From a virus (Duplodnaviria; Caudoviricetes): a stretch of DNA of 64,000 bases. The notes beneath the pieces were generated by a model, which made no database searches, had not been told where the DNA came from, and saw nothing but the letters and a program-made list of their open reading frames with translations. Shown in pieces: positions 3,252 through 62,411 of this stretch. Both the position numbers and the translations under genes were made by a program. Position 1 is the first letter of the stretch, and every line of letters begins with the position of its first letter. Location of the stretch: positions 75,821 through 139,820 of the IMG/VR virus record IMGVR_UViG_3300044557_000107; one strand, written 5' to 3'.

Positions 3252-6200
3252 CTATGACTGTTGTGACCAGTTTACTGTATGATCACTTAAGCTACTTTTT
3301 AATTTGGTAGCAATCTTATTTCCGATAGTTGTTCCTGTTGCATTAGCATCATCAATATTACCATTAACATTGACTGTAATTGGAATATTTATCCCACCAG
3401 AGTTTCCTCCCGAGGTAACCCCTGTTTTCTGAGCGGCATAGGCGGCTAGCGCTTTAGAACGTCCACTAGAAGCGGCACTTCCACCAGTAGGAACCACAGT
3501 TTCTTCGGAGTTCTCTGATATCCATGAAAGCGTAGGCTTTTCAATAACATTACCCGTGGCATTAGCCGTGGGTGCTTTGGATCCTGTATTAATAGTCGTA
3601 TTTGCGCTATAGGATGATCCCGATTTGCTTGTGGTAGTCTTTGTTGTGGAAGACGAAGAACTAGAACTAGAACTTTGAGTAATTGCACTAGCATTACTTG
3701 CTTTACCAAAGAAACCGTTTTGGGCTCTAGCTTGTTCTAGCAGTTGGGCTGTTTGATCAAGGTTACGTTTTTCTTTATCTGTGGCCTTGACTTTCTTATT
3801 GTCGTTAATGGTACTTGCCCTACTAATTTCTTTTTTAAGACGACTTCCTGCTTTAGTAACACCATCAAAAGCTTTGGTACCACCAAAGTACCCGGCGATA
3901 CCTCCAATAAGCCCTCCAGCGGCTTCTCCAATCCCGGTCTCACCAAGTACAGGAATAGCCGCACCAATTCCAGCTCCTACTTCACCACCGGCAACTGCAC
4001 CACCCCAACCAGATGCATCACGAGCACCCGTCTTAACAGCTTTTCTTCTGGCCGTTCTTTTCGCGTTTGCTTGTGCTCTTTTTCTACTTTGGCCTTTATT
4101 CTCATTAGCAATTTCAGCAGATTCTTTTGTCGAAGTATAGGTTCCGTAGATATCCATAGCTGTGGTAGCTCCTGCAAGAAGCGCATTCCCTTTACCGCCT
4201 AAAAGTTTAGTCCCTTTTTCAAGAACGCTACCTGTCTTAGTCAGCACACTACCCGTTCGACCAGTCCGAAGCCAGCCACCTGCTTTGGTCCCATATTTTC
4301 CAATGGTTCTACTTAGTCTGGAATTAGTAACTCTTGAGGTAGCTCTATAAGCACGATCTCGGATTCCGCCAGACTTTCCTCCGCCACCACCTACAACAGT
4401 TGTTTTAGACGAAGTACCTTCGCCGGTTCCTCCAGTTTTATTACTAGTATTTTCTCTGGTTTTAGACGTTGTTTCCTTAGTCGCCGTAGTCTCATTATAA
4501 GAACTACTAGTCCCTGTTTTAATAGATTCTGCAATTTTAGCCTCAAGAATTGCTTTAACAATCTGTGCAGTTCCCAGTCCGGTTGCAGTTACGATAGAAG
4601 CTAATCCTGAAGGTAACTTGTTAACCGCAATACTAATACTATTAACATATTTACCAATGGTATTCTGCTCATTACTAATAGATTTCTCATATTGAGCAGT
4701 ACTTTGAAAGTTTGATGAATCTGTAGAGCTATTATAAGACTTAGAGTTTTGATTCTTCCTATTACTACCCGTTATATTGTTTTCTTTTTCCCATTTTTTA
4801 ATATCAGAAGACGTTAGGTCTCCCTTTTCAGTCATTTCTGCTAGGGACTTCGCGGCTTTAGGATCGGATACGAGTCCTAGTTTCTGGTAAGCAAGGGCGG
4901 CTGTAGATACATTTCCTCTGGAGTAATTTTTAACTATTCCAGATATATCTTGAATATTATTAGGGTTTGTAATACCTTCAGAAGCTTGGATCTCTGCTCT
5001 TAAGTATCCACTTTGTCCTTGAAACTTGGTAGGATTTGATTGAATTAAGGATCTTAAAAGAGTACTGTTACCCCCAGTACCCGCGGACTTGAAGGCACTA
5101 TTCATCTGATTAAGATTGTTTCCACCAGCAGTTCCTTTCCAAGAACTACCCCCGTTTTTAGCAAGGTATGTCTGAGTAGCAGATGCTGTTTTAATACCCG
5201 AGGTAGTTACCTTTTGAGTATCCGTTTGATTCTTAACAATTTGGGATAGGTACTTAACCTGTTCTTGTAAAAGCCCTTGCGTATTCGAGTTTTTAGCGCC
5301 CCCAATAGCTTGATTAACAATTGAGTTAACTTGACGGGAGTTAGTAGCCGCACCCCCAGAGATGGCTGTGTTCATAAGCTCATTATAGTTAGATATACCA
5401 AACCCAGAACTTCTAGCATTTTGCATAATAGTCTTTAAATAGGAACTTGATACATTAGGGTTAGAACCATAGTTAGCACCTTGGGCCAATTGCATATAGG
5501 CTAATGAATCGCTCATACCAAACCCGGTTGATCTTTGAGCACCAACATTAATGGCGCGATTACGTGCCGACTGTGCGCTTATTCCCGAGTTGTCTCCGAC
5601 TTGGAACGCTAAATCCGCGGTACGCATATTTAAGTTCTTTCCTTGAGAATACCGTCGAGTAAAGTTACCCGTAGTAGCCCCTAAAACGTTAGACGTAAAC
5701 GATACTGCACGAGATTGGAGAATATCTTGAAAAGACCCTCGTTTAGGGTCTACTGTAGGGTTCGCAGAGTTAACTGAAGCACTGGACTTTGATAAGTTTC
5801 CAGCGGCTTCATTAGTTGCTTGTGAAAGGCTATTCAATGACTTAATCAGCTTTGTTTCAGCATCTTCCTGAAGCTTTAATTTTGCAAGCTGGTTGTTATA
5901 TTCGCTTCCAGAAATATTTCCACTTGCAAAGTCTTGAGTAGCAATACTTCGTTGTTGCTGATACATATTTATATTTTCTTGAGAAGACTGCCGTTGTTGC
6001 TTGATCCAGTCTTGCTGTTGCTGAATCATTTTTGATCCGTCACGGCTATCTCTTGAGAATCTTTGACTATCAATATAAGACATATGCCCAGAGTCTACAG
6101 CCCTATTTGCACGTTCTCTTTGTCTAGTGCCTAAGTTGCTTACTTGACGTTGACGCATACGAATGTTTTCATGAGCTTCTCGGTGAGATATATCATCAGT

Positions 6201-8288: not shown

Positions 8289-10124
8289 TTAAGATGTTGA
8301 CGTCGAAGTTGACAGGGTTGACTGGTCATATACAAGTCCTAAGCTAACATGCTTAATATTACGACTAATATCAACAACCATGTCTATTTGCCATTTACTT
8401 CCGTCTTGATTGATTGTCGTTACAGTAACGTTTGAAGCGTCATAAGCATAGATAAGTCCATCAGTGATAGCACCATCTAAGAAGCTTAACATTTTGGTTT
8501 TGATTGTTGATGGGCTGTTAGCCGCAACCTTTTGACCAATTAAGTTATTATCAATATAATTATTTGCGGCGGTAACAATCATATCAGAAGCTTCACCTAC
8601 ACCCATTTCAGTATCAACAGGACTAGTAGATCCATTGCTTGCATAAGTTGATACATCATCGGTAATACGGAAGCTCGATGTAGATGACGAGTTACGAACA
8701 TGTTGTATTGCGATAACGCCAGCGCCATCAAGAGAGTTGAGGTCGTCAATATCAAAGGTTACATCGCAACCCACAATATTTAGGTACTTATACGTTACTG
8801 AATCACCTTTTGGCAACCCTGAAGCGATACCCGCAACCATGGCCGCGGCCATATAGGCTGGGTAGGACGCGGTAGTTCCTGTAGTAGCATTCGTAATTTG
8901 AACACTGTTAGCAACTAGGTATCCACGGTCAGAGTCTAGTTGAGCGGCCCGAGAAATAGCTTCTTTCTTGGACTCGCTAATGCCGCCACCAACGATAACA
9001 CGCATAGGGTTTGCTAAATTAGCCTGTGCTTGTACATAAGCATTTGCTTCGGATTGAATAGACTGATCCGCAGTAAGTGGAACAATGTAGAAAGCGCCAT
9101 CTTCATTACTAAACAAGTTAAAGTAATTTGCCCAGCTAGAAGGACTAATCCCCGTACTACCACCCGTTAAGTTGGTTGCACTAAAGTTAGTTACAGGTAC
9201 TTCCGCAGTTTCCGCAGTGGCTGTGATAGTTGCAACACCATTTGACACATTTACGGATACATTTGTAGGTTCTGATACGACTCCTCCAAAAGGATCATAG
9301 GATACACTAACAGTGTTGTCGTATTCTACAGCGTTCAAAATATCCCCAGCAAGAGCTGTAAAGGTGGTTTCGGAAGTTTTTAAAGGAACTTCGTCTGTAG
9401 AATCTAAATAGTAACTATAAATGTTATGGTTACCCACACTAAAGAAATCAGCAGTAAATCCACTGATGTTATTAATGGTATTAATCAAATCGCCTAGTTT
9501 AGGCTGGGCGGAAGATGATCCAAGATCAATAGTAGATACTACAGTAGCAGTGCTTTGGGAAGCCCCAGCTTTAAGTGTTAAAGTATCGGCGTACCCAGTA
9601 TCATCATGATGAACTTGCGCAGAAGCATAGTTAAAAGTACCACTATAAGATAGTACAAGTACATTTCCTAGATTATCGTAGGTAGTATTAACATTGTCTG
9701 TATTGAAGCGAATATTTAATCGTTTGGTATTTGTAATTAAGTTATCAGTTAAGCTAACTTGAATTTCATTTGCCAAGCTACTATAAAGATCTGAGGTAAA
9801 CGTCAAAGGTCCTTCGACAAGAGAGGCTTGAGTTGCTGGTTGTGCACGAGTTGCAAGGATATCTCCAGCATAATAAGTTCCATCTGGAGTTGGATTCCAA
9901 GCTAACTGAATTGCATCAAGCAAATCGCCACTCCGCAGTACGTCTTTTGCGTTACTGTAGTTAGTAAACTTATAAACTACTCCGGGTTCTCCACCTTCGG
10001 AAGTACCTACAAGCATTAATTTCTTGTCGCTTGAACTTGACGTTCCTGTAATGGCGCTGTCATTTACAGTAGTTTGTACGCCCGGGATAGTGTTAGCATA
10101 TTTCGGGTACTTAGTAATTGCCAT
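8289..10124 (-). CDS. Contractile tail sheath protein
   Basis: 611 aa; GG(E)PG.VY....AK.VLRSGDLLDAI.LAWNP motif; AAMVAGIASG...S.TYK. Confidence 0.92.
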   Translation of the reverse strand: MAITKYPKYANTIPGVQTTVNDSAITGTSSSSDKKLMLVGTSEGGEPGVVYKFTNYSNAKDVLRSGDLLDAIQLAWNPTPDGTYYAGDILATRAQPATQASLVEGPLTFTSDLYSSLANEIQVSLTDNLITNTKRLNIRFNTDNVNTTYDNLGNVLVLSYSGTFNYASAQVHHDDTGYADTLTLKAGASQSTATVVSTIDLGSSSAQPKLGDLINTINNISGFTADFFSVGNHNIYSYYLDSTDEVPLKTSETTFTALAGDILNAVEYDNTVSVSYDPFGGVVSEPTNVSVNVSNGVATITATAETAEVPVTNFSATNLTGGSTGISPSSWANYFNLFSNEDGAFYIVPLTADQSIQSEANAYVQAQANLANPMRVIVGGGISESKKEAISRAAQLDSDRGYLVANSVQITNATTGTTASYPAYMAAAMVAGIASGLPKGDSVTYKYLNIVGCDVTFDIDDLNSLDGAGVIAIQHVRNSSSTSSFRITDDVSTYASNGSTSPVDTEMGVGEASDMIVTAANNYIDNNLIGQKVAANSPSTIKTKMLSFLDGAITDGLIYAYDASNVTVTTINQDGSKWQIDMVVDISRNIKHVSLGLVYDQSTLSTSTSTS

Positions 10125-10127
10125 ACA

Positions 10128-10355
10128 TTAGGACTCCTTGTTCAAAAATTTATTTAGGTAAGGAATAAAATCAACGTCTTTAGGAAGAACAGAATTACCT
10201 TGCATAAACGTTTTAAATCCGGCTACTTGCATATAGTTCATGTGGTACATAGGAATTGCTGTCTGTAAGAAAGCATCTATGTCTACCCACGGGGTATCCG
10301 TAATTTTATTCACTTTATTATTCTTTCTATTAGTCATTATTTTCCTGCCTTTCAA
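10128..10355 (-). CDS. Conserved small protein upstream of sheath
   Basis: ORF in the conserved Herelleviridae-type position; late-promoter motif just upstream. Confidence 0.6.
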   Translation of the reverse strand: MKGRKIMTNRKNNKVNKITDTPWVDIDAFLQTAIPMYHMNYMQVAGFKTFMQGNSVLPKDVDFIPYLNKFLNKES

Positions 10356-10366
10356 AAATAATATAG

Positions 10367-11227
10367 CTATGCTAGTGTTGCTGTAGGCTTTGCGGACTGA
10401 ATAGTTTTAATTAAGTCATAATGGACGGTATAGGTGGAAGTATAACTAAAAGATACTTGAATTCCATATACGGGAAGGTCTTTAGGAGTACCATCAACAA
10501 GAGCTACAGCATCTTCTTGATAGCTAGGTAAGTTAAGTCCAAATGGGCCTTCATTGGTTTCTTTGATGAGAATAACAATGAATTTTAGTAAATTATCTAA
10601 GCATCGTAAGACATCCATATTACTAGATATGATATAAATATCCAAGGTATCTTCGATGCTAAATCCTTTGGCAATTCCGGAGTACTTAGAGTTATCACCC
10701 GTAAGCAAAGCATAATAGCTTACACCAAGGTAGTTTCCTAAAATGCTTTCTGAAATGCCCTTTAAGTTAATACGTTTCTGGTTTGAATCATCAAGACTAT
10801 AAACATTATTAGATACCCCCTGAACAGCCGCTAGACTTCCAATAGGATTAGATGTAGCTAGAAAGTATCCTTGTGAGTCTTGTTGAACTTGTAGATTTTC
10901 TTGAGTAATTCCAGTATCCCAATTACTATACTGGGTAACATTATTTCCAATATCACTGTTCTGTTTTTGAGCACCTCCACGTGTCAGTACATAGAGTGCA
11001 TCGAATCCCAGGGTATTATCTGGAAACGTATAATCAACAGTAATATTATGCTCCGGATTAGTTCCCCCAAAGGCTTTCTTAAATGAAGCTACTACGTTAG
11101 GCTCAAGGTCTCCTAAAGCGCTATCTGTAATATAAGTTTCATTATTGGTTCCTACGCAACTTAGTATTTTGTCTAAGTACTCTGTAAGCATTTTCTTGAA
11201 GTAACTATCATAAGATACAATTGACAC
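10367..11227 (-). CDS. Virion neck / tail-terminator-type protein
   Basis: 286 aa in head-tail joining block (synteny only). Confidence 0.55.
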   Translation of the reverse strand: MSIVSYDSYFKKMLTEYLDKILSCVGTNNETYITDSALGDLEPNVVASFKKAFGGTNPEHNITVDYTFPDNTLGFDALYVLTRGGAQKQNSDIGNNVTQYSNWDTGITQENLQVQQDSQGYFLATSNPIGSLAAVQGVSNNVYSLDDSNQKRINLKGISESILGNYLGVSYYALLTGDNSKYSGIAKGFSIEDTLDIYIISSNMDVLRCLDNLLKFIVILIKETNEGPFGLNLPSYQEDAVALVDGTPKDLPVYGIQVSFSYTSTYTVHYDLIKTIQSAKPTATLA

Positions 11228-11847
11228 TATAGGTCACCTACTTTCTCTACCATCTGCTTGAACATTCGATCCATATTGTTAATCATAGTCTTACTAAAGT
11301 TATCTTCGTTAATACGATCACGATTTAGAATCCATGCGGAGGGGCTTGTTTTATCTGATACAGTTCTGAAAGATACATACATAGACTTAGATCCCTGACT
11401 GATCCTTGTAAGATTTTTAGATACAGGTGTGTAATTAGCATAACTAATAGTGCTGTTACTACTTCGGTTCTCATATAAAAGAGACACTGTGGATGTTCCG
11501 GATAGCTTGCTTGGGGGAATAACTATGCTATGAGCTTGCCGATATAATGCGTTGCTCATACCAGCTACCTTGCGGCGAATAGGAACTACTAGATACCACC
11601 CACCTGATTTACTACGCTTAGCAAAGGGACTCGCCTTGAAGAAAGGTTTTAAATCTACTACACCGTGTTTATTTGCGCGTTGTGCAGTTACTTCAAGATA
11701 ATGCGGTGAAACTTTAGGGTTTAAACCGAACTGTGAAGCAACTACGGCCGCTCGATTAATAATGTCTTGGGAAAGATTATCTCCGATGTTTTTTAGATAT
11801 TTATCAGTATTTTCAAATAGATCTGGCTTAGTTACTTTTTCTGTCAA
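11227..11847 (-). CDS. Head-tail joining/neck protein
   Basis: DLKPFF..S..K..GGWYLVVPIR motif typical of this slot in SPO1/Twort-like phages. Confidence 0.6.
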   Translation of the reverse strand: MTEKVTKPDLFENTDKYLKNIGDNLSQDIINRAAVVASQFGLNPKVSPHYLEVTAQRANKHGVVDLKPFFKASPFAKRSKSGGWYLVVPIRRKVAGMSNALYRQAHSIVIPPSKLSGTSTVSLLYENRSSNSTISYANYTPVSKNLTRISQGSKSMYVSFRTVSDKTSPSAWILNRDRINEDNFSKTMINNMDRMFKQMVEKVGDL

Positions 11848-27070: not shown

Positions 27071-27285
27071 TTGACATTCTGTTTAACTACTAGTATACTA
27101 AGAACCATAAAGAACTTAGGTAACCATAGATGCGAAAACCAAGTATCTTAATAAGTTACTTAAGGATCTTTAAGTAAACTGGGCTGGGACAGCCCTTAGT
27201 AAATAGCTGTAACCTATAGATACTTTAGAGTATCCAAGTACGCAGTGTTCCTAGAAGCTCGTCACTTTAGTAACGAGCAGTTCAC
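27071..27285 (+). ncRNA. Orphan omega-RNA copy 1 with own sigma-A promoter (no tnpB)
   Basis: TTGACA-17-TATACT, 5' stem-loop, then GGGCTGGGACAGCCCTTAGTAAATAG...GTTCCTAGAAGC-hairpin-AGTTCAC homologous to scaffolds at 126-261 and 54246-54375. Confidence 0.8.
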
Positions 27286-27683: not shown

Positions 27684-27921
27684 ATTTAAGAAAACATGTT
27701 ACTTTAGTTGACATTCTGTTAACTAGGGGTATACTAAAAACTATAAAGAACTTAGGTAACCATAGATGCGAAAACCAAGTATCTTAATAAGTTACTTAAG
27801 GATCTTTAAGTAAACTGGGCTGGGACAGCCCTTAGTAAATAGCTGTAACCTCTATGTGCTTTAGGGTACTCAAGCATGCAGTGTTCCTAGAAGCCCGTTA
27901 CTTTAGTAATGAGTAGTTCAC
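27677..27921 (+). mobile_element. tnpB-less IS605-derived mini-element carrying orphan omega-RNA copy 2
   Basis: Degenerate left-end hairpin (AAGAAAA-CATGTTAC-TTTA-GTTGACAT) after TCTAT, promoter TTGACA-16-TATACT, scaffold identical to copy 1 over ~100 nt, ends GTAGTTCAC. Confidence 0.72.
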
Positions 27922-33216: not shown

Positions 33217-34057
33217 TGGATACTTAATTGTTAGTGATATTCATGGAAATTATCAAGCTCTTAAGCACATGGTTGATATTCCAGAGTTCTCAAATTCTAA
33301 GATTATTTTTGATGGAGATTACATCGATGGCTATGGAGTTAATGATTCTGATAAAGTAGTAGACTTTATTGCAGATCAGTACCAGCGTAATAATGCTACA
33401 GTTCTGCCGGGGAACCATGAATTACTATTATATAAGTATATCTATGGTGAACGAAGAGACTGGGAATTATATAAAGCTAATGGAGGGAAGCGTACAGTAA
33501 AGTCCTTCCTAGGAGAAGCTACTCGTAGCTCGGTTTCTAATAAGGTAGCACTAAGGGATAATAAATATTGGAATCAACTAGATTCTATGATGGATCACTG
33601 TTTTGACATTCGAGATACTGTAGTAATGTATGAAGACTCTAAACTGATTACAGTCCATGCAGGTTTAAGTTATATTGCTGAGGATTACCATAATACCAAC
33701 TTGTGGGATAGCTTATGGATGCGAGAGGATTATTTCTATGGACTTAATACGAAGTACCATAATGATAACTACTTTGCACGTAATAAGTTTCACAAGCCCA
33801 TTGTGGTAGGACATACTCCCACGTGTACTTTAGAAGGTATCTTACCTACAGGAACTCAGTTACACTATACTAGGGGTGATTTAGAGTGTCCCGTGGTAGT
33901 ATCTAAGTATGAAGATGAGGAACCACGATTCTTTATTGACGGAGGGAGCCATGGAGCTACCAATTCATTAAACGTTCTCTACTATGAAAGCGAAGATAAC
34001 TACGGAGCTTACAAGCTAACTCCGGATGGTCTTACAGAAGGGGAGATTGTGAGCTAG
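33209..34057 (+). CDS. Calcineurin-like metallophosphoesterase (Ser/Thr phosphatase family)
   Basis: SDIHG, GDYID, GNHE, VHAG, GHTP motifs. Confidence 0.9.
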   Translation: MNNGYLIVSDIHGNYQALKHMVDIPEFSNSKIIFDGDYIDGYGVNDSDKVVDFIADQYQRNNATVLPGNHELLLYKYIYGERRDWELYKANGGKRTVKSFLGEATRSSVSNKVALRDNKYWNQLDSMMDHCFDIRDTVVMYEDSKLITVHAGLSYIAEDYHNTNLWDSLWMREDYFYGLNTKYHNDNYFARNKFHKPIVVGHTPTCTLEGILPTGTQLHYTRGDLECPVVVSKYEDEEPRFFIDGGSHGATNSLNVLYYESEDNYGAYKLTPDGLTEGEIVS

Positions 34058-34200
34058 TCAATTGCCCTACTAAAGTAGGAAGCTTGTAACTCAATCCCAT
34101 AGGGGTAGTGGTATTAACGTTCTATAGAACTTCCACTTAAGGTTACATCATCGGGTGATTGACAGCACCCGTTTAACTATTAGAATATGTCCAACAGTTA
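34057..34200 (-). ncRNA. omega-RNA / right end of IS1341-like element ending TTGAC
   Basis: Minus strand GGGTG-ctGTCAAt-CACCC loop complementary to terminal TTGAC; CAAG-CTT-CCTAC-TTTA-GTAGG hairpin. Confidence 0.8.
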
Positions 34201-35388
34201 TTATTTAGTAATTTTAGTTGTATCTCCAGTTACCCAGTTAGTTCCTAAGTATTGAATATTCATAGCACCAATGCGGTCATCATTAGACTTATAACCACAG
34301 TTGGCACACTGGTACTCATGAATATCATGTTTTCTGTTATTTTTATTGACAGATCCACATTTAGGACAACGCTGGCTGGTATACTGAGCACTAACCTTAA
34401 TAACTTTAGAACCATTAAGTTCTGCTTTATAGGTTAGAAATTGCTCAAACTGGTAGAAAGCCCAGCTAACCTGCTCGTAACGATTTGTTTTAGCAACTTT
34501 CTCCGTAGCAAATCGAACATTGGTTAAGTCTTCTAATACAAAGAGAGTGTCTTTACCATATTTATCAGTGAGTGTCTTAGTTATTCGATGATTAATATCA
34601 CTCATCCAGCGGTTTTCTCGCTGACCAATGGCTTTAAGTCTTCTTTTAGCAGACTTAGTACCCTTACTTTGTAATTGTTGTCTTAACTTCTTGTACTTTC
34701 TACGTTTTGCTGTAATAGCTTTACCATCTATAAAGGAAGTTTTACCTTTTTCATCATAAGTGGTTGCTAAAAAGCGTAGACCTCTATCTATGCCAACTAC
34801 ATGTTTCAAGTCATCTTTTTCAAAGATACGAGGTTCTACAGTAGCAGAGATATGCAAGAAGTAATGTCCATATGATTTAACAAGTTTAGCAGTGCCTAAT
34901 TTACCATCTAAGTATTGTTCAAAGCCCTTCATAGAAAAACCCATAATTTCACGGTTACCTAAGGTATTAAGAGATAGCTTACCATTCTTAAATGACCAGT
35001 CACGTATAGATACTAAATCACACTGAGGTCTTTTAAAGCTAATAGGCTTTTGTAACCATGATAGGTCACGCTGAGCGGTATACCAAGTATCAGTGTTGTT
35101 ATCTTTATAGTGGTATGGCTCTTGTTTAAGCTGTGTTTCTACAGTTCTATACCTAGCAATAACTGTTTTAAAGACAGATTGTGTCATTTGTGCCTTAAGA
35201 CCAAACTTGTCCCTAACCTTATGATACAAATCTTTATTAATATCTTTTTGCTTAGGTATAAAGTTATGGTCAAAGTAGTACTTAGATACTAAATTACAGG
35301 CATTCCTATACTGTTGCATAGTAGCTAGTAATAAGTTACCTTGTTCAGATGTAGGATATATTCTTGCTTTAATAGTTACAGTTGTCAT
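34201..35388 (-). CDS. tnpB: TnpB (IS1341-like), RuvC intact
   Basis: VVGIDRG, FVLEDL, CPKC/CANC, NDDRIGAMNI; GAGGTG RBS before MTTVTIKARIYP. Confidence 0.93.
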   Translation of the reverse strand: MTTVTIKARIYPTSEQGNLLLATMQQYRNACNLVSKYYFDHNFIPKQKDINKDLYHKVRDKFGLKAQMTQSVFKTVIARYRTVETQLKQEPYHYKDNNTDTWYTAQRDLSWLQKPISFKRPQCDLVSIRDWSFKNGKLSLNTLGNREIMGFSMKGFEQYLDGKLGTAKLVKSYGHYFLHISATVEPRIFEKDDLKHVVGIDRGLRFLATTYDEKGKTSFIDGKAITAKRRKYKKLRQQLQSKGTKSAKRRLKAIGQRENRWMSDINHRITKTLTDKYGKDTLFVLEDLTNVRFATEKVAKTNRYEQVSWAFYQFEQFLTYKAELNGSKVIKVSAQYTSQRCPKCGSVNKNNRKHDIHEYQCANCGYKSNDDRIGAMNIQYLGTNWVTGDTTKITK

Positions 35389-35492
35389 TTGTGTTTCACC
35401 TCTTCCCTTCACTATATAATATAGCCGAGTATTTTAGTGAAGTATAGAGTATTAAAATGTTATAATAATTAGAAAGGAAGTGCACTCGTTTA

Positions 35493-48471: not shown

Positions 48472-48972
48472 ATGAGTAACAAATATGTATTCTTAATTGA
48501 GGATAGGGCTAAAGGCATAGTTACATTGAAGAACCTAAAATTCGCCATGTCCCATTATGGAGGTCGTCTATGGATGATGACTGTAGTTCTTCCTCAAAAG
48601 ATTGGGGGAGGTTGGTATGAATCTTTGGATTATAAACTCCACTATATGTCTCCAAAAGAGAATAAAAATAATGTAATTAAGATGCTTACAAGGGATTCAG
48701 TTTCGTTAAAGGAAGCTATGCGAGCTAAACATAATTACTTATCGTCCTCTGGTAGAGAAAATCGTAAATTAAAATTAAAAATTATACCTTTACAATCTGC
48801 GAAGAGTATAATAAATAGTATTCCCCTAGAAGTAGAGGAGCCTCAAGGGCTTGGAAGAACTATACACCGTTTAAGAAAGATTAAGGAAAAGCAAAAAGAA
48901 AGATCGAGAGATAAGCAAAAAGAAAGATCGAGAGATAAGCAAAAGCAACATGGTCTACACCCTAAATTTTAG
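48472..48972 (+). CDS. Hypothetical basic protein with KQKERSRD tandem repeat
   Basis: 24-nt tandem repeat near 48889-48945. Confidence 0.6.
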   Translation: MSNKYVFLIEDRAKGIVTLKNLKFAMSHYGGRLWMMTVVLPQKIGGGWYESLDYKLHYMSPKENKNNVIKMLTRDSVSLKEAMRAKHNYLSSSGRENRKLKLKIIPLQSAKSIINSIPLEVEEPQGLGRTIHRLRKIKEKQKERSRDKQKERSRDKQKQHGLHPKF

Positions 48973-48987
48973 AAGGGAAGCATTAAT

Positions 48988-49311
48988 GTGAAACTAAAGG
49001 CAGAAGTTGAAGTTCTTGGAGTAACATATAAAATATTTACAGAAGTTACAGACTCGGATAATCCAAGGATTAAAGGACTTGATGGTTACTGTGACTGTGT
49101 TAATGAACTCGGGCACAAGATTTACATTGCGTATTTTTCAGAGGAGCGTAAGGCTTACGAAGCCGAAGTAATTCGTCATGAGCTAGTTCATGCATTCTTG
49201 TACGAGTCTGGCTTAGATACTCAGAGTACATGGGCAAGAGATGAGGAACTAGTTGATTGGATTGCAATCCAGTTTCCTAAGATGAGTAAAGCTTTCAAAA
49301 GTATTTCTTAA
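48988..49311 (+). CDS. HExxH metallopeptidase-like phage protein
   Basis: DGYCD...IRHELVHAFLYESGL...EELVDWIAIQFPK. Confidence 0.7.
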   Translation: MKLKAEVEVLGVTYKIFTEVTDSDNPRIKGLDGYCDCVNELGHKIYIAYFSEERKAYEAEVIRHELVHAFLYESGLDTQSTWARDEELVDWIAIQFPKMSKAFKSIS

Positions 49312-52839: not shown

Positions 52840-52994
52840 GAAGGAGGATATTATGTTCTTTAGGAAGAAAAAGAAAACCAAACATCGGTATCACATAGTT
52901 ATGGACTCTAATGGTTACAGAGTTCAGGCGGAGTTTAGCCTAGATGGGGAAATAACAAATGGGGACCAAATGAGGTACTTAGTCAAATATTTAT

Positions 52995-54375
52995 TTGTTT
53001 AGGGCAAGAAGACACGTTATTTCAATAACGTGATGAATTACTGATTGACAAATATAGCAATAGTAGTATAATAGAGATAAACAAAGGAGGTGAGAATATA
53101 TGTATAAAGGAATTAAACTTCAAATATATCCAAACTTAGAACAGCAACAACAGATAGTTGATAACTTTGGTTGTTGTCGGTTTGTGTGGAATCAGATGTT
53201 AAACATGCAGATTGAAAGGTATAAGAATAACCCAGATAGCAAATTCTTAAATGGATTTGCTATGAATTTTCTGTTAAAACAATTAAAATCTGAACACCCA
53301 TGGTTAAAACAAGTAGATAGTACATCATTACAAGATACTTGTGAAACTCTAGCAGTGACATACCAAAGGTTCTTCAAACATATTGGTAGTTATCCAAAAT
53401 TCAAATCTCGTAAATACCCTAAGAAAAGTTATAAAGCTAAAATGATTACTAATAACATTAGATTAGTGAATAATCATTATCTCAAATTACCTAAGTTAGG
53501 GGTTATGAAGTTTAAAGGTCGCTTAACTACTGACAAGATTAAATCTGCTACAATTAAACTAAGTCCAGCTGGTAAATTCTATTGTGTTTTATTGACTGAA
53601 TGTGAAAACCAAACATTATTTGATAAAACTAACAAGAACGTAGGTTTGGATATGGGTGTAGCAGATTTGGTTATTACTAGTGATGGTATTAAATACCCTA
53701 CTATTAGATTTGATAAAATCTTAGCTAAAAAGAAACATTATTGGGAGAAAAGATTAGCTAGACGTAGATTACAAGCTCAAAGAGAAATGGCAGGGGATAA
53801 ACATAATAAGGTACTAGAGCCTCGTGTATTAGCAGATTTTAAGAATGTTGAGAAAGCTAAAATCATGGTTGCTAAATACAGTGAAAAGATAGCTAATCAG
53901 CGAAAGGATTATCTGCATAAGATAACTACGGATCTAGTTCATCAATATGATGTGATCAAAATTGAAGATTTGAAAACCAAAAATCTTCTAAAGAACCACA
54001 AATTAGCTAGAGCTATTGCAAACCAAAGTTGGAGAGAACTCCGAAGTATGCTGGAATATAAATGTGAGTGGTATGGAAAACAGTTAGTCACTGTTAACCC
54101 TAGAAAGACTAGTCAAATTTGTAGTAACTGTGGTTATGATGATGGTAAGCATGAGTTAAATATTAGACAGTGGACGTGCCCTAAATGTGGTACCAACCAT
54201 GATAGAGATATAAATGCAGCAATTAATATCCTACAAGCATCATAAATACAAAGACTAACATGGGATGGGACAGCCCTTAGTAAATAGAGTAAACCGCTGT
54301 TTAGTATTACTAGTAATACTAGATAAGTTATGCTTGTTCCTAGAAGCTCGGTACTTTAGTACCGATGTAGTTCAC
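52995..54375 (+). mobile_element. tnpB-only IS200/IS605 element inserted 3' of TTTAT
   Basis: Left-end hairpin AAGA-CACGTTAT-ttca-ATAACGTG; right end GAAG-CTCGGTAC-ttta-GTACCGA...TTCAC; no tnpA. Confidence 0.88.
53100..54245 (+). CDS. tnpB: TnpB, RuvC intact
   Basis: [40 protein letters not shown]. Confidence 0.95.
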   Translation: MYKGIKLQIYPNLEQQQQIVDNFGCCRFVWNQMLNMQIERYKNNPDSKFLNGFAMNFLLKQLKSEHPWLKQVDSTSLQDTCETLAVTYQRFFKHIGSYPKFKSRKYPKKSYKAKMITNNIRLVNNHYLKLPKLGVMKFKGRLTTDKIKSATIKLSPAGKFYCVLLTECENQTLFDKTNKNVGLDMGVADLVITSDGIKYPTIRFDKILAKKKHYWEKRLARRRLQAQREMAGDKHNKVLEPRVLADFKNVEKAKIMVAKYSEKIANQRKDYLHKITTDLVHQYDVIKIEDLKTKNLLKNHKLARAIANQSWRELRSMLEYKCEWYGKQLVTVNPRKTSQICSNCGYDDGKHELNIRQWTCPKCGTNHDRDINAAINILQAS

Positions 54376-54446
54376 CGAACTTGTGGAGTCTACCCGATGG
54401 GCATATTCTAAGTATAGTTAGGATTGAGAAGGAAGGTGATTAGAAT

Positions 54447-54638
54447 ATGCAAAGAACTTTTAGACATAAATATGTGTACTATGTAGTTTTTGAAAGTCAA
54501 AATGAGAAAAATACTTTTGAGATTACTAGGCATACCCCACTGAATTCTCGGTCAAAACTAGATGCACTAACGGATAGTCTTTTGAAGGAACTAAAAGCAT
54601 CAAGCGGAATAATTACTAATGTAACTCGGCTTAATTAA
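54447..54638 (+). CDS. Small hypothetical protein
   Basis: 63 aa, GGAAGGTG RBS. Confidence 0.55.
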   Translation: MQRTFRHKYVYYVVFESQNEKNTFEITRHTPLNSRSKLDALTDSLLKELKASSGIITNVTRLN

Positions 54639-54653
54639 AGGAGAAATTATAAA

Positions 54654-55394
54654 ATGAGAACATATAACCTATATCAATATCAAGAAACAGAACAGAGTAG
54701 TCATGTATTGACCCTAACTAATACGCAGTACTTGGGGTTTGAAAGTAGTGATACTTCCGCCATTGTTGATGAATATGTAGACAAATTATATGAAGACTTT
54801 TGCCGTGATTGGAAGTCTAAATTTGTTCATCGTAATGAGTCCAGTGATAGTAATGTTCTGTATCATGTATCCTTTAAAGCTTACGATGATGAGAATGAAG
54901 GAAATGTTTGTGCAGTAACAGAGTTTACCCTTGCAGATGGAATGGGACCCGCTCATGAAGACTCGAATTCGAAAGAAGATGCTGTTAAAGAACGGGATGA
55001 AGACCGAGATGGATGTATTAGCATTCCTTTGAGTGATGTTGTAAAATTATGGAACCTTCATGAAACTCAAGACTATGCCCCTTCCTTAGTTTCTTATAAA
55101 TCATCTGGAAGTCTTTCCGATGGAGTAACTCCACGAGAAATTCATGCTGTTATGCATATCAAAGATAAATGCACAGGAACTGACTACAATTGCCCCCTAT
55201 ATGTTCCCGGAGGATCTGACAACACGATTCCCCTGGTTATTACTACCTCTAATTTATTTTCGCTTGCTATGCCCACATCAGGAAGCCACATAATTTCTAC
55301 TGATGGATCACTTAGTAAAGAAAGCCCTGAGTATTTAACTGCATTAGCTGGGGGACTCGGAAACGAGTACGTGACTTTTAAAAAGACTATCTAG
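54654..55394 (+). CDS. Hypothetical protein
   Basis: 246 aa, AAGGAG RBS. Confidence 0.6.
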   Translation: MRTYNLYQYQETEQSSHVLTLTNTQYLGFESSDTSAIVDEYVDKLYEDFCRDWKSKFVHRNESSDSNVLYHVSFKAYDDENEGNVCAVTEFTLADGMGPAHEDSNSKEDAVKERDEDRDGCISIPLSDVVKLWNLHETQDYAPSLVSYKSSGSLSDGVTPREIHAVMHIKDKCTGTDYNCPLYVPGGSDNTIPLVITTSNLFSLAMPTSGSHIISTDGSLSKESPEYLTALAGGLGNEYVTFKKTI

Positions 55395-55432
55395 TCCATA
55401 TTGCGTCGCTAAAGAATCAAGGTGATCTATAT

Positions 55433-56704
55433 TTGAAAAGTACAGCTAAGAACTATAAATCAATTACTGTTCGACTATACCCTAGTAAATCTCAAGAAGA
55501 TAAATTAAATCTAATCTTAGACCTTACTAAAGATTATAATAATACACTTATTAGGACTTTTAAAGAACGCCGTAGAAATATTGAGAGAAGTCCCTTGGAT
55601 AGAAAGTTAAAGCCCCGATTAGTACCAAATAAGATTAGCTTGTCCTACGTAAACACCGAGTATCTAAAAGAGTATCCGGTTTTTGAAATCGCCGGAACGA
55701 TCAACATTAAAGAAACAGCTAATAACGTTCTTGATGGATTCCTTAAGTATTATAGCCATACCCCGCATTTTAAAGTGTCCCCACCCGTGATTAAGAAAAG
55801 TAGTTACTCATATAATACTCGATTAGGTAAACGCAAGCACCTAGTAGTAGCTGATGCTAACAGTAAGTACCTACAAATTTCATTACCGAGTCTGGGGTTA
55901 GTGGCATGTACCAACAGTTCCCGACTTGCAAAGTTACCAGGAAAAGCCTACTTTTGTACTGTCTACAAGAATCGCCTTAATCATTTTTACCTAGCAATTA
56001 ATGTTCCGGGTGAGGTCACAAGTACAAAAAAGTGTCTTCCAGGGACTTCATTAAGCACTTTAAGTAAATCTAATAAAGTAGCCACCGTTGTGCTAGGCGT
56101 TAATCCTATGGCAAAAGTCTATGTTAATCAACAATGTGTAAAAACGTATTATCGTAGATCTAGTAAATATAATAGTCAGGTACAACAGTATAAACACCAG
56201 TTAGTAAAGTTTCGCAAGTCGGGCAGTAGTTCTCACTCTAAGCGGCAGATTAAGCGGTATCAAGAGACTTTAAGATTATATAACAAGTATTGTTTGAAAG
56301 AGCTTCATAGTAAACAAGATTACCTGCATAAAGTCTCTAAGGAACTTAGTCAAACCTATGATGTGGTTATTATTAACCGACCATATATGACGCATGATAA
56401 CGCTAAAAAGCTCCCTATTAGACTAACGATGGCTCGAAAACAGACCGGACTAAACATGCTCATTAAATATTTGGAATACAAAATGAGTTCATCCCATAAG
56501 ATACTTTTAAAAGTAACCTATAAGGATATTAGTAAATGGTCTTGTTCAGTATGTGGATTTAACAGCCAATACAATTTGATGTTAGAACCCAAGGAACTAA
56601 TCCAAATAACTTCATGGGTCTGTCCCCATTGTGGAACCCGACTGGATGTGAAGGACAATCTGGCGGCAAACATGCTTAAGTATGTAAACAAAACTATATC
56701 TTGA
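55433..56704 (+). CDS. Nuclease-dead TnpB homolog (TldR-like)
   Basis: ITVRLYPS..Q, LPSLG.V, DYLHKVS..L...YD, L..YLEYK, CSVC/CPHC; RuvC positions read ATVVLG (D>V), IINR (E>N), DVKDNLAAN (D>K). Confidence 0.75.
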   Translation: MKSTAKNYKSITVRLYPSKSQEDKLNLILDLTKDYNNTLIRTFKERRRNIERSPLDRKLKPRLVPNKISLSYVNTEYLKEYPVFEIAGTINIKETANNVLDGFLKYYSHTPHFKVSPPVIKKSSYSYNTRLGKRKHLVVADANSKYLQISLPSLGLVACTNSSRLAKLPGKAYFCTVYKNRLNHFYLAINVPGEVTSTKKCLPGTSLSTLSKSNKVATVVLGVNPMAKVYVNQQCVKTYYRRSSKYNSQVQQYKHQLVKFRKSGSSSHSKRQIKRYQETLRLYNKYCLKELHSKQDYLHKVSKELSQTYDVVIINRPYMTHDNAKKLPIRLTMARKQTGLNMLIKYLEYKMSSSHKILLKVTYKDISKWSCSVCGFNSQYNLMLEPKELIQITSWVCPHCGTRLDVKDNLAANMLKYVNKTIS

Positions 56705-56757
56705 CTTTTTCAAAACTATGTGATAGTATAGCTAGTAAACAAGGGGAGGAATCAATT

Positions 56758-57381
56758 ATGGATAAGTCTAGCCAATTATCAACGGATAATGTTTTAGCAG
56801 TAATCAAAGAAGACTTTGGAAACGAAGACACCCAGTATAATGTCCTAGAAAATCCAGGTATTTGGGAAGCTAACAAGGATTCTTATCAGGACGAACAGAA
56901 GTTCTGCCAGAAGAACTTAGAGGTCCTTTCTAAAATACCTTTACGGGATATTTGGATAGCAACACCCGCGGATTTTCGGGAAGACTACACAGGGGATGTT
57001 ACTTTTGAAGTGCTATATCTAAATACAGATAAGCTACTTAATAGTATTTCAGATGAGCAACTCCTAGATATTTTAGAAACCGAGTTAGGTACCCATAGTG
57101 TTACTTTTGAAGAGGGTGACGGATGGTATGATGGAGAAACTACTGTTCTAAGCTATGACCCCGATACCCATAACTTCAAAGTATCTTATGACGAATGGCG
57201 AGACTATGGCACCGAAGAGGATGAATGGCATGGTGGAACCGAACATTTTTCAAGCGAAGACATTGTACCTGCAATGGAACTCATCAACTATCTACGAAAG
57301 CGTAACTTTGGTTCTATTGAATCGGAAAAGACTTTTAAGGAATCTTTAAAGGTGTTATTGAAAGACTATTTAGCCGGTTAA
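56758..57381 (+). CDS. Acidic hypothetical protein
   Basis: Promoter TTGACT at 56701 and GGAGG RBS favour ATG at 56758. Confidence 0.6.
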   Translation: MDKSSQLSTDNVLAVIKEDFGNEDTQYNVLENPGIWEANKDSYQDEQKFCQKNLEVLSKIPLRDIWIATPADFREDYTGDVTFEVLYLNTDKLLNSISDEQLLDILETELGTHSVTFEEGDGWYDGETTVLSYDPDTHNFKVSYDEWRDYGTEEDEWHGGTEHFSSEDIVPAMELINYLRKRNFGSIESEKTFKESLKVLLKDYLAG

Positions 57382-57396
57382 GAAAGGAATAATAAA

Positions 57397-58122
57397 ATGC
57401 GAAAAGAATACAAAGAAATTAATGATAAGATACAACGTAGAGCAGAAGAGCTTAATGGTTACATGTTAGAAGCTCAAAGAAAACACCTAAAGAATAACGC
57501 TTTAAAGGATAAGTCCAAATTAAAGGAAGACGTTCTAAAGGCACGTTTTGCCCAAAACGAAGACTACTATGATGACCAAATAGATGATATTATTAGTCTA
57601 CTGGATACTCTTGAAGATACTCTTCGAGCGGCAGTATTAAGTAAGAGCTTTAATCAGTATCCTTACAATGATACTAAAGTATACTTTTTGGATAACCATT
57701 ATGACTATCCTGCTGGAAACTATCATGGAGAAGAAGGAACGTCCAAGGCCCAGCAATATCTTAATTTTAAAGATACTAATTTTATTTTGAGCCATGGAAA
57801 TAAAGTATTTGTTTCTTTAGATGACTCTATTTTAGATAGCTTATGGCGCTATCAGGGTCTAGTTGCATCTTATTTTAATTTACAGAGTAGATTGAACTCG
57901 GCTAATTACACTTGGTACCGAGAAGCATCCGGGGATTTAGACCCTAGTAATCTTAAAGATACTCCTAAGTATCCGCTAAAGTTTATTCATAAAAAATTGG
58001 AAGAACTAGAGATTCGTCATCCAATGGTAATCAGAATGGACTTACTAAATAGGGATGAAGTCCAAAAACGTGTATGGGATCAAGCCGTGTCCTTGCGGGA
58101 TAATGGTCAAAGACTTATTTAA
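57397..58122 (+). CDS. Hypothetical protein
   Basis: 241 aa, AAAGGA RBS. Confidence 0.6.
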   Translation: MRKEYKEINDKIQRRAEELNGYMLEAQRKHLKNNALKDKSKLKEDVLKARFAQNEDYYDDQIDDIISLLDTLEDTLRAAVLSKSFNQYPYNDTKVYFLDNHYDYPAGNYHGEEGTSKAQQYLNFKDTNFILSHGNKVFVSLDDSILDSLWRYQGLVASYFNLQSRLNSANYTWYREASGDLDPSNLKDTPKYPLKFIHKKLEELEIRHPMVIRMDLLNRDEVQKRVWDQAVSLRDNGQRLI

Positions 58123-58622
58123 GTTATCCCAAGATCTAAGCAAGAATCCATTAAGGGGCGGCTAGTGTCCCCACACATAACTACAGTGTATCTACACTAG
58201 TATATATTAAGAGTTTCAAATAAGGAGCTTAAGGGTATCTCAGTGAAACAAAACTGGGGTACCTTTTTGATTACCCAAACCTAAGTACCTAAGGCAGATA
58301 TTACAAAAGGACAGGGTGGGGGGTCTTCTATGTAAACAGGGGGGTGGGGGTTCTTATTAAGGTACTTTATTAAAGGTACTCGATAGGATCCTTAGAGAAG
58401 AGACTGCAAGGTTCTCTGTTTCACCCCGAGTATTTTATGCGTAAATTTAGAGGGTTTAAAGGGTACCCCAGGTAGACAGACAGGGTAGGCAAAATAGCAG
58501 ACCCCCTAGGATGGCCAAAAGGACAGGTGGGGGGTCTGCTAGGTACCTGACAAGGACCTACGCACAACGAAAGTACTTTGTCAAGGACTTTTAATAGACT
58601 GTAAATAAACTTTAAAGGACTG

Positions 58623-61953: not shown

Positions 61954-62411
61954 TAGTCCCAATCCTTTTCTAGTAAGTCCTCTACTAGTTCTGATAGTTC
62001 CACAACCTTTTGTAAGTCTGCTTGATTATTAATTAAAGTATTACGCTTAACGTCGTCCCCAATAAAGTCTACAATTTTATTATTGAAGCCTTGTTTAACT
62101 GTTAGTAACTTATAAAGTGCTTGGTAAGCTAAATACTCCATTAGATAACTAGGATCATCACCGTTATTAACAAGTAATTTATACAATAGTGTATCATCAT
62201 GATAAAAGGCAACTAAATCACTTAGCTTATTAAATAAGTCTAAACCGGATAGACTGCTGAAATATAAATCCACGGTTTCATCGTCCCAATAAAATACATC
62301 ATTAGTATTACTTAATAAGTCTTCGAAGTCTGTAATGGCTGGTTCATCATCAATGGTTGAAATTAAGTCTTTCATAACTTGCTTTGTAAGTTGCTTATCT
62401 ACATTTAACAT
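61953..62411 (-). CDS. Early acidic hypothetical protein
   Basis: GGGGGT RBS. Confidence 0.6.
   Translation of the reverse strand: MLNVDKQLTKQVMKDLISTIDDEPAITDFEDLLSNTNDVFYWDDETVDLYFSSLSGLDLFNKLSDLVAFYHDDTLLYKLLVNNGDDPSYLMEYLAYQALYKLLTVKQGFNNKIVDFIGDDVKRNTLINNQADLQKVVELSELVEDLLEKDWD

Follow-up and report, generated by a model that had tools for sequence, protein, structure and literature searches.

Several proteins derived from TnpB, namely Cas12k of the CRISPR-associated transposons (CASTs), dCas12f-sigmaE and Cas12m, bind DNA under RNA guidance without cutting double-stranded DNA. Closest to the gene described here are the TldR proteins, which are defined operationally as TnpB-like proteins with at least two mutated RuvC residues and without tnpA or the left and right transposon ends (LE/RE) (10.1101/2023.11.30.569447). 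They are polyphyletic (10.1101/2023.11.30.569447), and phage-borne representatives are known from the fliC_P clade, in temperate phages. The characterised clades are those associated with fliC_P, oppF and csrA (10.1101/2023.11.30.569447; 10.64898/2026.09.22.753285). Here we describe a TnpB gene of 423 codons, predicted to be nuclease-dead, at positions 55433-56704 of a 64-kb stretch of DNA from a large Lactobacillus-type phage (IMG/VR record IMGVR_UViG_3300044557_000107, positions 75,821 to 139,820). This whole stretch is referred to as the window, and coordinates are those of the window unless stated otherwise. It is the right-hand end of a complete phage genome of 139,820 bp with direct terminal repeats.

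Like the TldRs, the dead TnpB is a TnpB homologue with mutated RuvC residues, all three in this case where two or more make a TldR. It has neither tnpA nor LE/RE, occupies a fixed locus among non-transposon genes and is of independent origin. It is phage-borne, as is the fliC_P clade, and its lid segment is relaxed, as in the oppF clade. It differs from the TldRs in having no guide RNA (gRNA) gene beside it (the TldR criterion being within about 500 bp and normally downstream), in being full length with an intact zinc finger where many TldRs are C-terminally truncated, in being carried by a phage of 140 kb, with tRNA genes and direct terminal repeats, and not by a prophage, and in having orphan genes as neighbours. 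Since it falls within the operational definition but the downstream guide gene is missing, we call it TldR-like and not a member. The features of the gene are as follows.

55433..56704, plus strand: predicted nuclease-dead TnpB gene, 423 amino acids, TTG start and TGA stop (open reading frame list, sequence, family and fold)
55419..55425, plus strand: ribosome-binding site AAGGTGA, 7 nt 5' of the TTG start (sequence)
56090..56092, plus strand: codon V220, at the RuvC-I Asp position (ISDra2 D191; 24- and 120-sequence alignments)
56375..56377, plus strand: codon N315, at the RuvC-II Glu position (ISDra2 E278; pairwise, 24- and 120-sequence alignments)
56387..56452, plus strand: lid-like segment, approximately residues 319-340, in the place of the RuvC lid (alignment and model)
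56543..56632, plus strand: zinc-finger (TNB) part, in which C371/C374 and C397/C400 are retained (Pfam and alignment)
56651..56653, plus strand: codon K407, at the RuvC-III Asp position (ISDra2 D361; HMMER plus multiple alignments)

The open reading frame (ORF) is separated from its neighbours by 38 nt upstream and 53 nt downstream, the next gene starting with ATG at 56758, and a promoter scan of the 38-nt gap found no promoter-like site. A reading of this DNA made from the sequence only had called the gene an intact, full-length TnpB, and the profile and fold searches bear this out. The NCBIfam profile IS200_TnpB matches the protein with an E-value of 6e-21 over profile positions 2-357 of 360 (75 bits; the neighbouring active TnpB scores 381 bits). 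Pfam Cas12f1-like_TNB was found at 4.9e-7, over its cut-off, and OrfB_IS605 under its cut-off, while PHROG 506 ('transposase') matches at 1.5e-24 and the ISDra2 TnpB structures used as references for the HMMER alignment (8bf8/8h1j) at E 4e-13. An AlphaFold2 model (predicted local distance difference test, pLDDT, 78.9) displays the full WED-REC-RuvC-zinc-finger order, and its best Foldseek matches are the TnpB ternary complexes 8h1j, 8iaz and 8exa, with template modelling (TM) scores of 0.65-0.73 normalised by target length. A search of the ESM Atlas returned generic TnpB clusters only. The motifs named as retained, DYLHKVS, LEYK and both CxxC pairs, are present in the sequence and in the 24-sequence alignment. 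The protein is very basic (isoelectric point, pI, 9.95), with 74 lysine and arginine against 26 aspartate and glutamate residues and a net charge of about +48, which makes it more basic than its active relatives.

A second allele (P0001) was found in a sister phage, the 137-kb contig L001, at 10001-11272 of that contig, where it is also called as a protein of 423 amino acids. Its position is the same as in the window and it is bounded by the same orphan genes; contig L002 is the same sequence as L001 and provides no extra allele. In an exhaustive HMMER search of 1.84 billion representative proteins P0001, 96% identical, was the one cluster with more than 50% identity, the next match having an E-value of 1e-10 and 28% identity. 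No further alleles were found in a word-index search, a scan of IMG/VR or a scan of JGI metagenomes.

All three catalytic positions had been read as substituted (D to V, E to N and D to K), and this holds. V220, N315 and K407 occupy these positions in both alleles, and the pairwise alignment to the neighbouring TnpB and the 24- and 120-sequence alignments concur on them, with 115 of the 120 nearest full-length homologues having D/E/D there. The HMMER alignment to ISDra2 places D361 on K407 and E278 on P317 (on N315 without its 2-residue gap), which is non-acidic in either case; its D191 region is out of register with low posterior probability, so that V220 is taken from the motif match and the multiple alignments. 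By the model the catalytic positions sit where a RuvC fold expects them: V220 lies inside the strand 216-221, N315 is the final residue of the strand 311-315 and the last helix begins with K407. The invariant H, R and A of RuvC-III are likewise replaced, by L404, V406 and L410. A catalytic residue may shift to an alternate position (Wiegand et al., 10.1101/2023.11.30.569447), but residues 195-277 contain no aspartate or glutamate in either allele, which leaves no substitute for the first aspartate. On these alignments the nuclease site is dead.

The losses are not spread evenly. Among 22 active-type homologues 46 columns reach 85% conservation or more, and the dead TnpB keeps 25 of these, among them the N-terminal YP..Q strand, P118, Y127, P152/G155, DxxHK, LEYK, the four zinc-finger cysteines, W395, N409 and N413, and the lost columns that are invariant in 22 of 22 homologues all fall within the RuvC motifs. 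Judged by these columns, residue loss is selective for the RuvC motifs. Among the aligned 120 homologues only the dead TnpB and its allele have lost all three catalytic residues. Since 115 of the 120 keep D/E/D, inactivation arose on the dead-TnpB lineage, as had been supposed when it was described as independently derived.

Between the two alleles we counted 36 synonymous and 20 non-synonymous changes (56 in total, no indel), giving 17 amino-acid differences. The ratio of non-synonymous to synonymous substitution rates (dN/dS) from this single allele pair is 0.138 (P=4e-12 versus neutrality), the minimum among five adjacent genes, whose values span 0.20-0.76; for the WED/REC part it is 0.10. 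The comparison of the alleles shows the dead TnpB to be under purifying selection. It is not a decaying copy, the frame being intact in both alleles and dN/dS low. Loss of the ends, the RNA and the active site, together with very high sequence divergence, is what a neutral relic of an immobilised IS in the course of being lost would exhibit. We consider such a relic highly improbable, as 56 substitutions have left the 1272-nt frame unbroken in each allele, dN/dS stands at 0.14 (P=4e-12), the composition has ameliorated to the phage average and the non-catalytic invariant residues are selectively retained.

The replacements that did occur are clustered in the lid-like segment, with 7 of the 17 in residues 322-340 (binomial P=5e-6), and residues 319-333 have pLDDT values below 50 in the model. 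The oppF-associated TldR has a poorly conserved lid, which is disordered and not needed for repression (10.64898/2026.09.22.753285), and relaxation of the lid is what would be expected in a protein that binds but has ceased to cut. The GC content (0.361) and codon usage of the gene equal the phage average. True insertion sequence (IS) copies lie at different places in the two phages and the dead gene is syntenic in both; the comparison of the two genomes thus shows it to be a resident gene at a fixed, non-transposon locus.

A complete IS with an active TnpB lies 1 kb upstream of the dead gene and provides a contrast to it. It comprises the following features.

52995..54375, plus strand: complete 1381-bp TnpB-only IS, a clean insertion when compared with the empty site TTTAT/CGAAC of the sister contig
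53045-53072, plus strand: perfect TTGACA-16-TATAAT promoter in the left end of the IS (promoter scan)
53100-54245, plus strand: active TnpB of the IS (IS-internal)
54261-54375, plus strand: omega-RNA scaffold of the IS, ending exactly at the insertion boundary (…GTTCAC)

The target-adjacent motif (TAM) of this IS at 52995-54375 is TTTAT, and the guide following its scaffold (54375) is the flanking sequence CGAACTTGTGGAGTCT. Compared with active IS200/IS605 TnpBs (ISDra2, 8exa/8h1j, and the resident IS), the dead TnpB has the same domain order and fold, but it is without D/E/D, the RuvC-III H/R and LE/RE, and equally without a TAM-flanked insertion, an internal promoter and an omega-RNA. Its flanks match only themselves in BLAST searches within the genome and have no homology to the resident IS ends, so the gene stands without IS ends as had been proposed, all the IS features being absent from it.

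The sequence-only reading further held that the gene has no omega-RNA of its own. Rfam gave no match in 52900-57000, even at E <=1, and alignment of the 3' flank with those of the relatives revealed that the scaffold is missing at the dead locus. The best covariance-model match, at 56513-56601, lies inside the ORF and was rejected as a chance match, since its E is >1 and all TnpBs have homologous coding sequence at this place. With BLAST, the covariance models and the folding analysis given below agreeing, these searches show the gene to lack a neighbouring guide-RNA gene of the type found in this clade. The argument from space, namely that there is no room for an omega-RNA, does not serve as proof. 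Guide RNAs of TnpB may overlap the 3' end of the ORF, so the 53-nt gap is not a strict argument and the absence rests on the searches.

From these data we propose that a former IS200/IS605-type RNA-guided nuclease has become a resident phage gene, an exapted TnpB, and that the exaptation would have involved loss of the transposon ends, of its own omega-RNA gene and of the whole RuvC active site. The WED, REC, RuvC-scaffold and zinc-finger architecture and the very basic surface would have been retained. Based upon the pI of 9.95, the charge of approximately +48, the intact zinc finger and the constrained WED/REC part, we infer that the protein still binds nucleic acid, and it would act without cutting. 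Its most likely mode of action would be RNA-guided binding to DNA, by which transcription or some other DNA transaction is blocked, with the guide RNA supplied from another locus or in a form that was not recognised. That the dead TnpB works in this TldR-like manner, with a guide from elsewhere, is the interpretation that we favour, tentatively, and we would put it somewhat below an even chance. Of the TldR-like regulator that had been suggested before, the full-length, RuvC-dead, selected and independently derived protein at a fixed locus stands; no adjacent guide gene accompanies it.

Several points weigh against this interpretation. The characterised TldRs all have the gRNA directly downstream (10.1101/2023.11.30.569447; 10.64898/2026.09.22.753285). 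At the dead locus the omega-RNA covariance models R1/R2, run over 54400-58600 with filters off, reached 5.4/6.2 bits (E 1.6/1.3) as against 41-126 bits at scaffolds, although these models were built from proteins 21-26% identical to the dead TnpB and a strongly diverged RNA could escape them. Likewise, the fold z score is about 0 at 56590-56757 versus about -2 for true scaffolds. The N-terminal half, which corresponds to the RNA/TAM-binding part, scores at most 26 bits against any homologue, an extreme divergence, and 4-13 bits against the resident TnpBs, which rank 9, 57 and 60. The evidence for selection is one pairwise comparison, the two alleles being the only independent ones. In the tree of 120 homologues the stem branch of the dead TnpB is the longest, at 1.89 substitutions per site, and the identity of the protein to every relative is only 21-26%. 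The diverged N-terminal half and the longest branch make a change of function away from RNA guidance possible.

Such a change would lead to an RNA-independent role, in which the basic zinc-finger TnpB scaffold is reused as a DNA/RNA-binding or protein-interaction protein in an accessory programme of the phage. No guide RNA was detected by any test run, and the omega-RNA that follows the stop codon in the relatives P0009 and P0113 is absent at the dead gene; these results are in its favour, as are the branch length, the greatest in the tree, and the extreme divergence seen in the RNA/TAM-binding half. However, the WED/REC/RuvC/zinc-finger architecture that holds the guide RNA and the heteroduplex is kept, at a dN/dS of about 0.1. 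To our knowledge no RNA-free function is known for any TnpB-family protein, and this too counts against an RNA-independent role, which we regard as unlikely though still a substantial alternative.

Three candidate relatives were rejected. P0109, the sister of the dead TnpB in the tree (support 0.78) and so a possible distant dead relative, is an IS607-type TnpB beside a serine recombinase, and the grouping is probably due to long-branch attraction. The 403-amino-acid TnpB at 34201-35412 on the minus strand has no significant similarity to the dead gene; it belongs to a quite different subfamily and has its own structured 3' flank at 34000-34200. The 462-amino-acid TranC-type protein is 22% identical to the dead TnpB. 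This active protein is the one to which a TranC-type array 8.4 kb upstream of the dead gene belongs.

The TldR-like protein might take its guide from the omega-RNAs of the phage itself. The genome contains seven omega-RNA scaffolds that belong to one family and differ in the 'guide' that follows them, and four of the seven have no intact tnpB alongside.

10489-10595 and 48883-48988 (genome coordinates), minus strand: omega-RNA scaffolds of the family
62020-62125 and 75968-76081 (genome coordinates), plus strand: omega-RNA scaffolds of the family
27180-27285, 27816-27921 and 54261-54375 (window coordinates): omega-RNA scaffolds of the family

The family has 96.9% of its cells paired and compensatory changes in 19 of 33 pairs, and the observed score was not reached in any of 500 shuffles; by this covariation it is a real structured RNA. 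The covariance model scores 90-126 bits at the resident scaffolds. It also finds an omega-RNA of the resident family directly 3' of the stop codon of two TnpB genes from unrelated metagenome contigs.

L012 2707-2830: omega-RNA after the P0009 TnpB gene (58 bits)
L010 2732-2849: omega-RNA after the P0113 TnpB gene (41 bits)

P0009 is the best full-length match to the dead TnpB and P0113 the best match to its N-terminal half, and both proteins are 40-46% identical to the source proteins of the model. That these two relatives carry the resident omega-RNA family, a likeness of the dead TnpB to the active IS200/IS605 group, makes an ancestral link of the dead TnpB to that RNA plausible. Its N-terminal half is so diverged, however, that retained recognition of the resident omega-RNA is not to be assumed. 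Loading of the resident omega-RNAs in trans, which had been suggested from the sequence and forms one share of the TldR-like interpretation, is in our estimate improbable; against it stands also that no complete scaffold occurs in the 21 kb examined of the sister phage. The same judgement applies to the form of this idea in which guides are drawn in trans from a library of stand-alone omega-RNAs that is shared with the active TnpBs, which we doubt equally. If it were true, the same omega-RNAs would direct cutting with the active TnpBs and binding or repression with the dead paralogue, that is, a two-effector, shared-guide system in one phage.

Binding of these RNAs could also be an end in itself. 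As a trans-acting competitor or sponge the dead TnpB would bind resident omega-RNAs or TranC-type RNAs without cutting and thereby temper or redirect the active TnpBs. The seven covarying scaffolds of one family in the genome (19/33 pairs compensatory; 0/500 shuffles) and the presence of that family beside P0009 and P0113 would suit this role. On the other side, the N-terminal half is as far from the resident TnpBs as from unrelated ones (ranks 9, 57 and 60; 4-13 bits), and the sister phage keeps the dead gene although the 21 kb of it that were examined contain no complete scaffold of the resident family, the best match being 17 bits. A sponge thus appears to us as improbable as loading in trans.

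Two features are found at the 3' end of the gene and in the flank beyond it.

56480..56730, plus strand: 251-nt tract with zero differences from the sister phage, made up of the final 225 nt of the ORF and a further 26 nt beyond the stop codon
56701..56729, plus strand: promoter-like TTGACT (56701)-17-TAGTAT with TG before the -10 element, overlapping the stop codon (consensus match only)

Approximately 5.7 synonymous changes would be expected in 56480-56730 and none was observed, and the invariant tract stops exactly where the promoter-like TTGACT-17-TAGTAT does. The promoter-like site (56701-56729) is identical in the sister phage. A promoter of the next gene had been described as overlapping the stop codon; a promoter-like site does lie there, but it fits the consensus at only 9 of 12 positions, a level of agreement that occurs in the sequence no more often than in shuffles. 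Guides of TnpB and TldR are transcribed from the 3' end of the ORF (10.1101/2023.11.30.569447). The tract might on this basis be a cryptic guide RNA of the gene's own that overlaps the 3' end of the ORF, consisting of a scaffold of a new type plus guide, in which case the promoter-like sequence past the stop codon would be a guide mirroring the target promoter. The lack of substitutions and the coincidence of the end of the tract with the promoter-like site would be explained in this way. There is, however, no fold signal in the tract (z between -1.9 and +0.9 for windows of 120 nt, with about 0 at the end) and no covariance-model match, and the post-stop sequence 56680-56765 has no match of at least 14 nt elsewhere in the phage. 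Moreover, in the 13.8 kb aligned between the window and the sister contig the tract is the second-longest identical one; the longest, of 289 nt, lies elsewhere, so that mosaic recombination can explain the 251-nt tract as well. Recombination may have produced the tract, or it may be a functional element that overlaps the gene. It is a weak lead, and a cryptic guide RNA is in our opinion quite improbable, a shade more so than a sponge.

Among the other nuclease-inactive TnpB derivatives, Cas12k, dCas12f-sigmaE and Cas12m appear in the fold search of the dead TnpB. They differ from it in having CRISPR arrays, tracrRNA and partner proteins nearby; no such partner or array is present at the dead-TnpB locus. 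The gene combines triple catalytic loss and an intact zinc finger with the lack of a guide gene, in a genome that has active TnpBs, orphan omega-RNAs and a TranC-type array, and this combination is unusual.

The surroundings of the dead gene are a block of genes on the plus strand.

54447..55394, plus strand: upstream genes of 63 and 246 amino acids, of no known family, syntenic in the sister phage
56758..58122, plus strand: downstream genes of 207 (ATG at 56758) and 241 amino acids, of no known family, syntenic in the sister phage
58231..58270, plus strand: likely terminator that closes the plus-strand gene block, with a strong hairpin and then a U-run

None of the four neighbouring genes has a PHROG match, and the 246- and 207-amino-acid genes have no homologues among 50,697 phage records. 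As the neighbours are orphan genes, the context gives no functional hint and no target pathway. The plus-strand orphan block (54447-58122) ends at the terminator, and the dead gene is therefore probably co-expressed with the block. For its 3' untranslated end (58123-58270) the fold z score is -3.05, and a conserved hairpin at approximately 58161-58201 precedes the terminator hairpin at 58231-58270. The 241-amino-acid orphan gene (57397-58122) is fast-evolving compared with its neighbours, with a dN/dS of 0.54 and about 100 differences in 57600-58050, and may be under diversifying pressure.

In nucleotide comparisons the window comes nearest to the TnpB ('transposase') genes of large Lactobacillus phages, and it carries four tRNA genes. 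About 950 bp, with a gene for a 213-amino-acid protein, are additional in the sister contig, at L001 13038-13983 (window counterpart 58417-58470). On either side of this stretch lies a copy of a 54-bp sequence that is single in the window, and the stretch looks like another small mobile insertion. Further TnpB genes occur at L001 2013-3236 (407 amino acids) and 5047-6183 (378 amino acids), with none at those places in the window; the 378-amino-acid TnpB is 27% identical to the resident TnpB type of the window. The TnpB content thus differs between near-identical phages, which implies fast turnover, whereas the dead gene stays put.

Dead TnpBs of the TldR kind are the natural counterpart of CRISPR interference (CRISPRi), and only three clades have been characterised, all of them guide-adjacent. 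As an annotation, the dead TnpB of this phage is well supported. If it proves to be TldR-like with a distant guide, exaptation would have gone one step further, with effector and guide uncoupled. If it is RNA-independent instead, the TnpB scaffold would be reusable without RNA, and either answer would be instructive. The phage is a natural test bed for these questions, since its 140-kb genome holds orphan guides together with active and dead paralogues.

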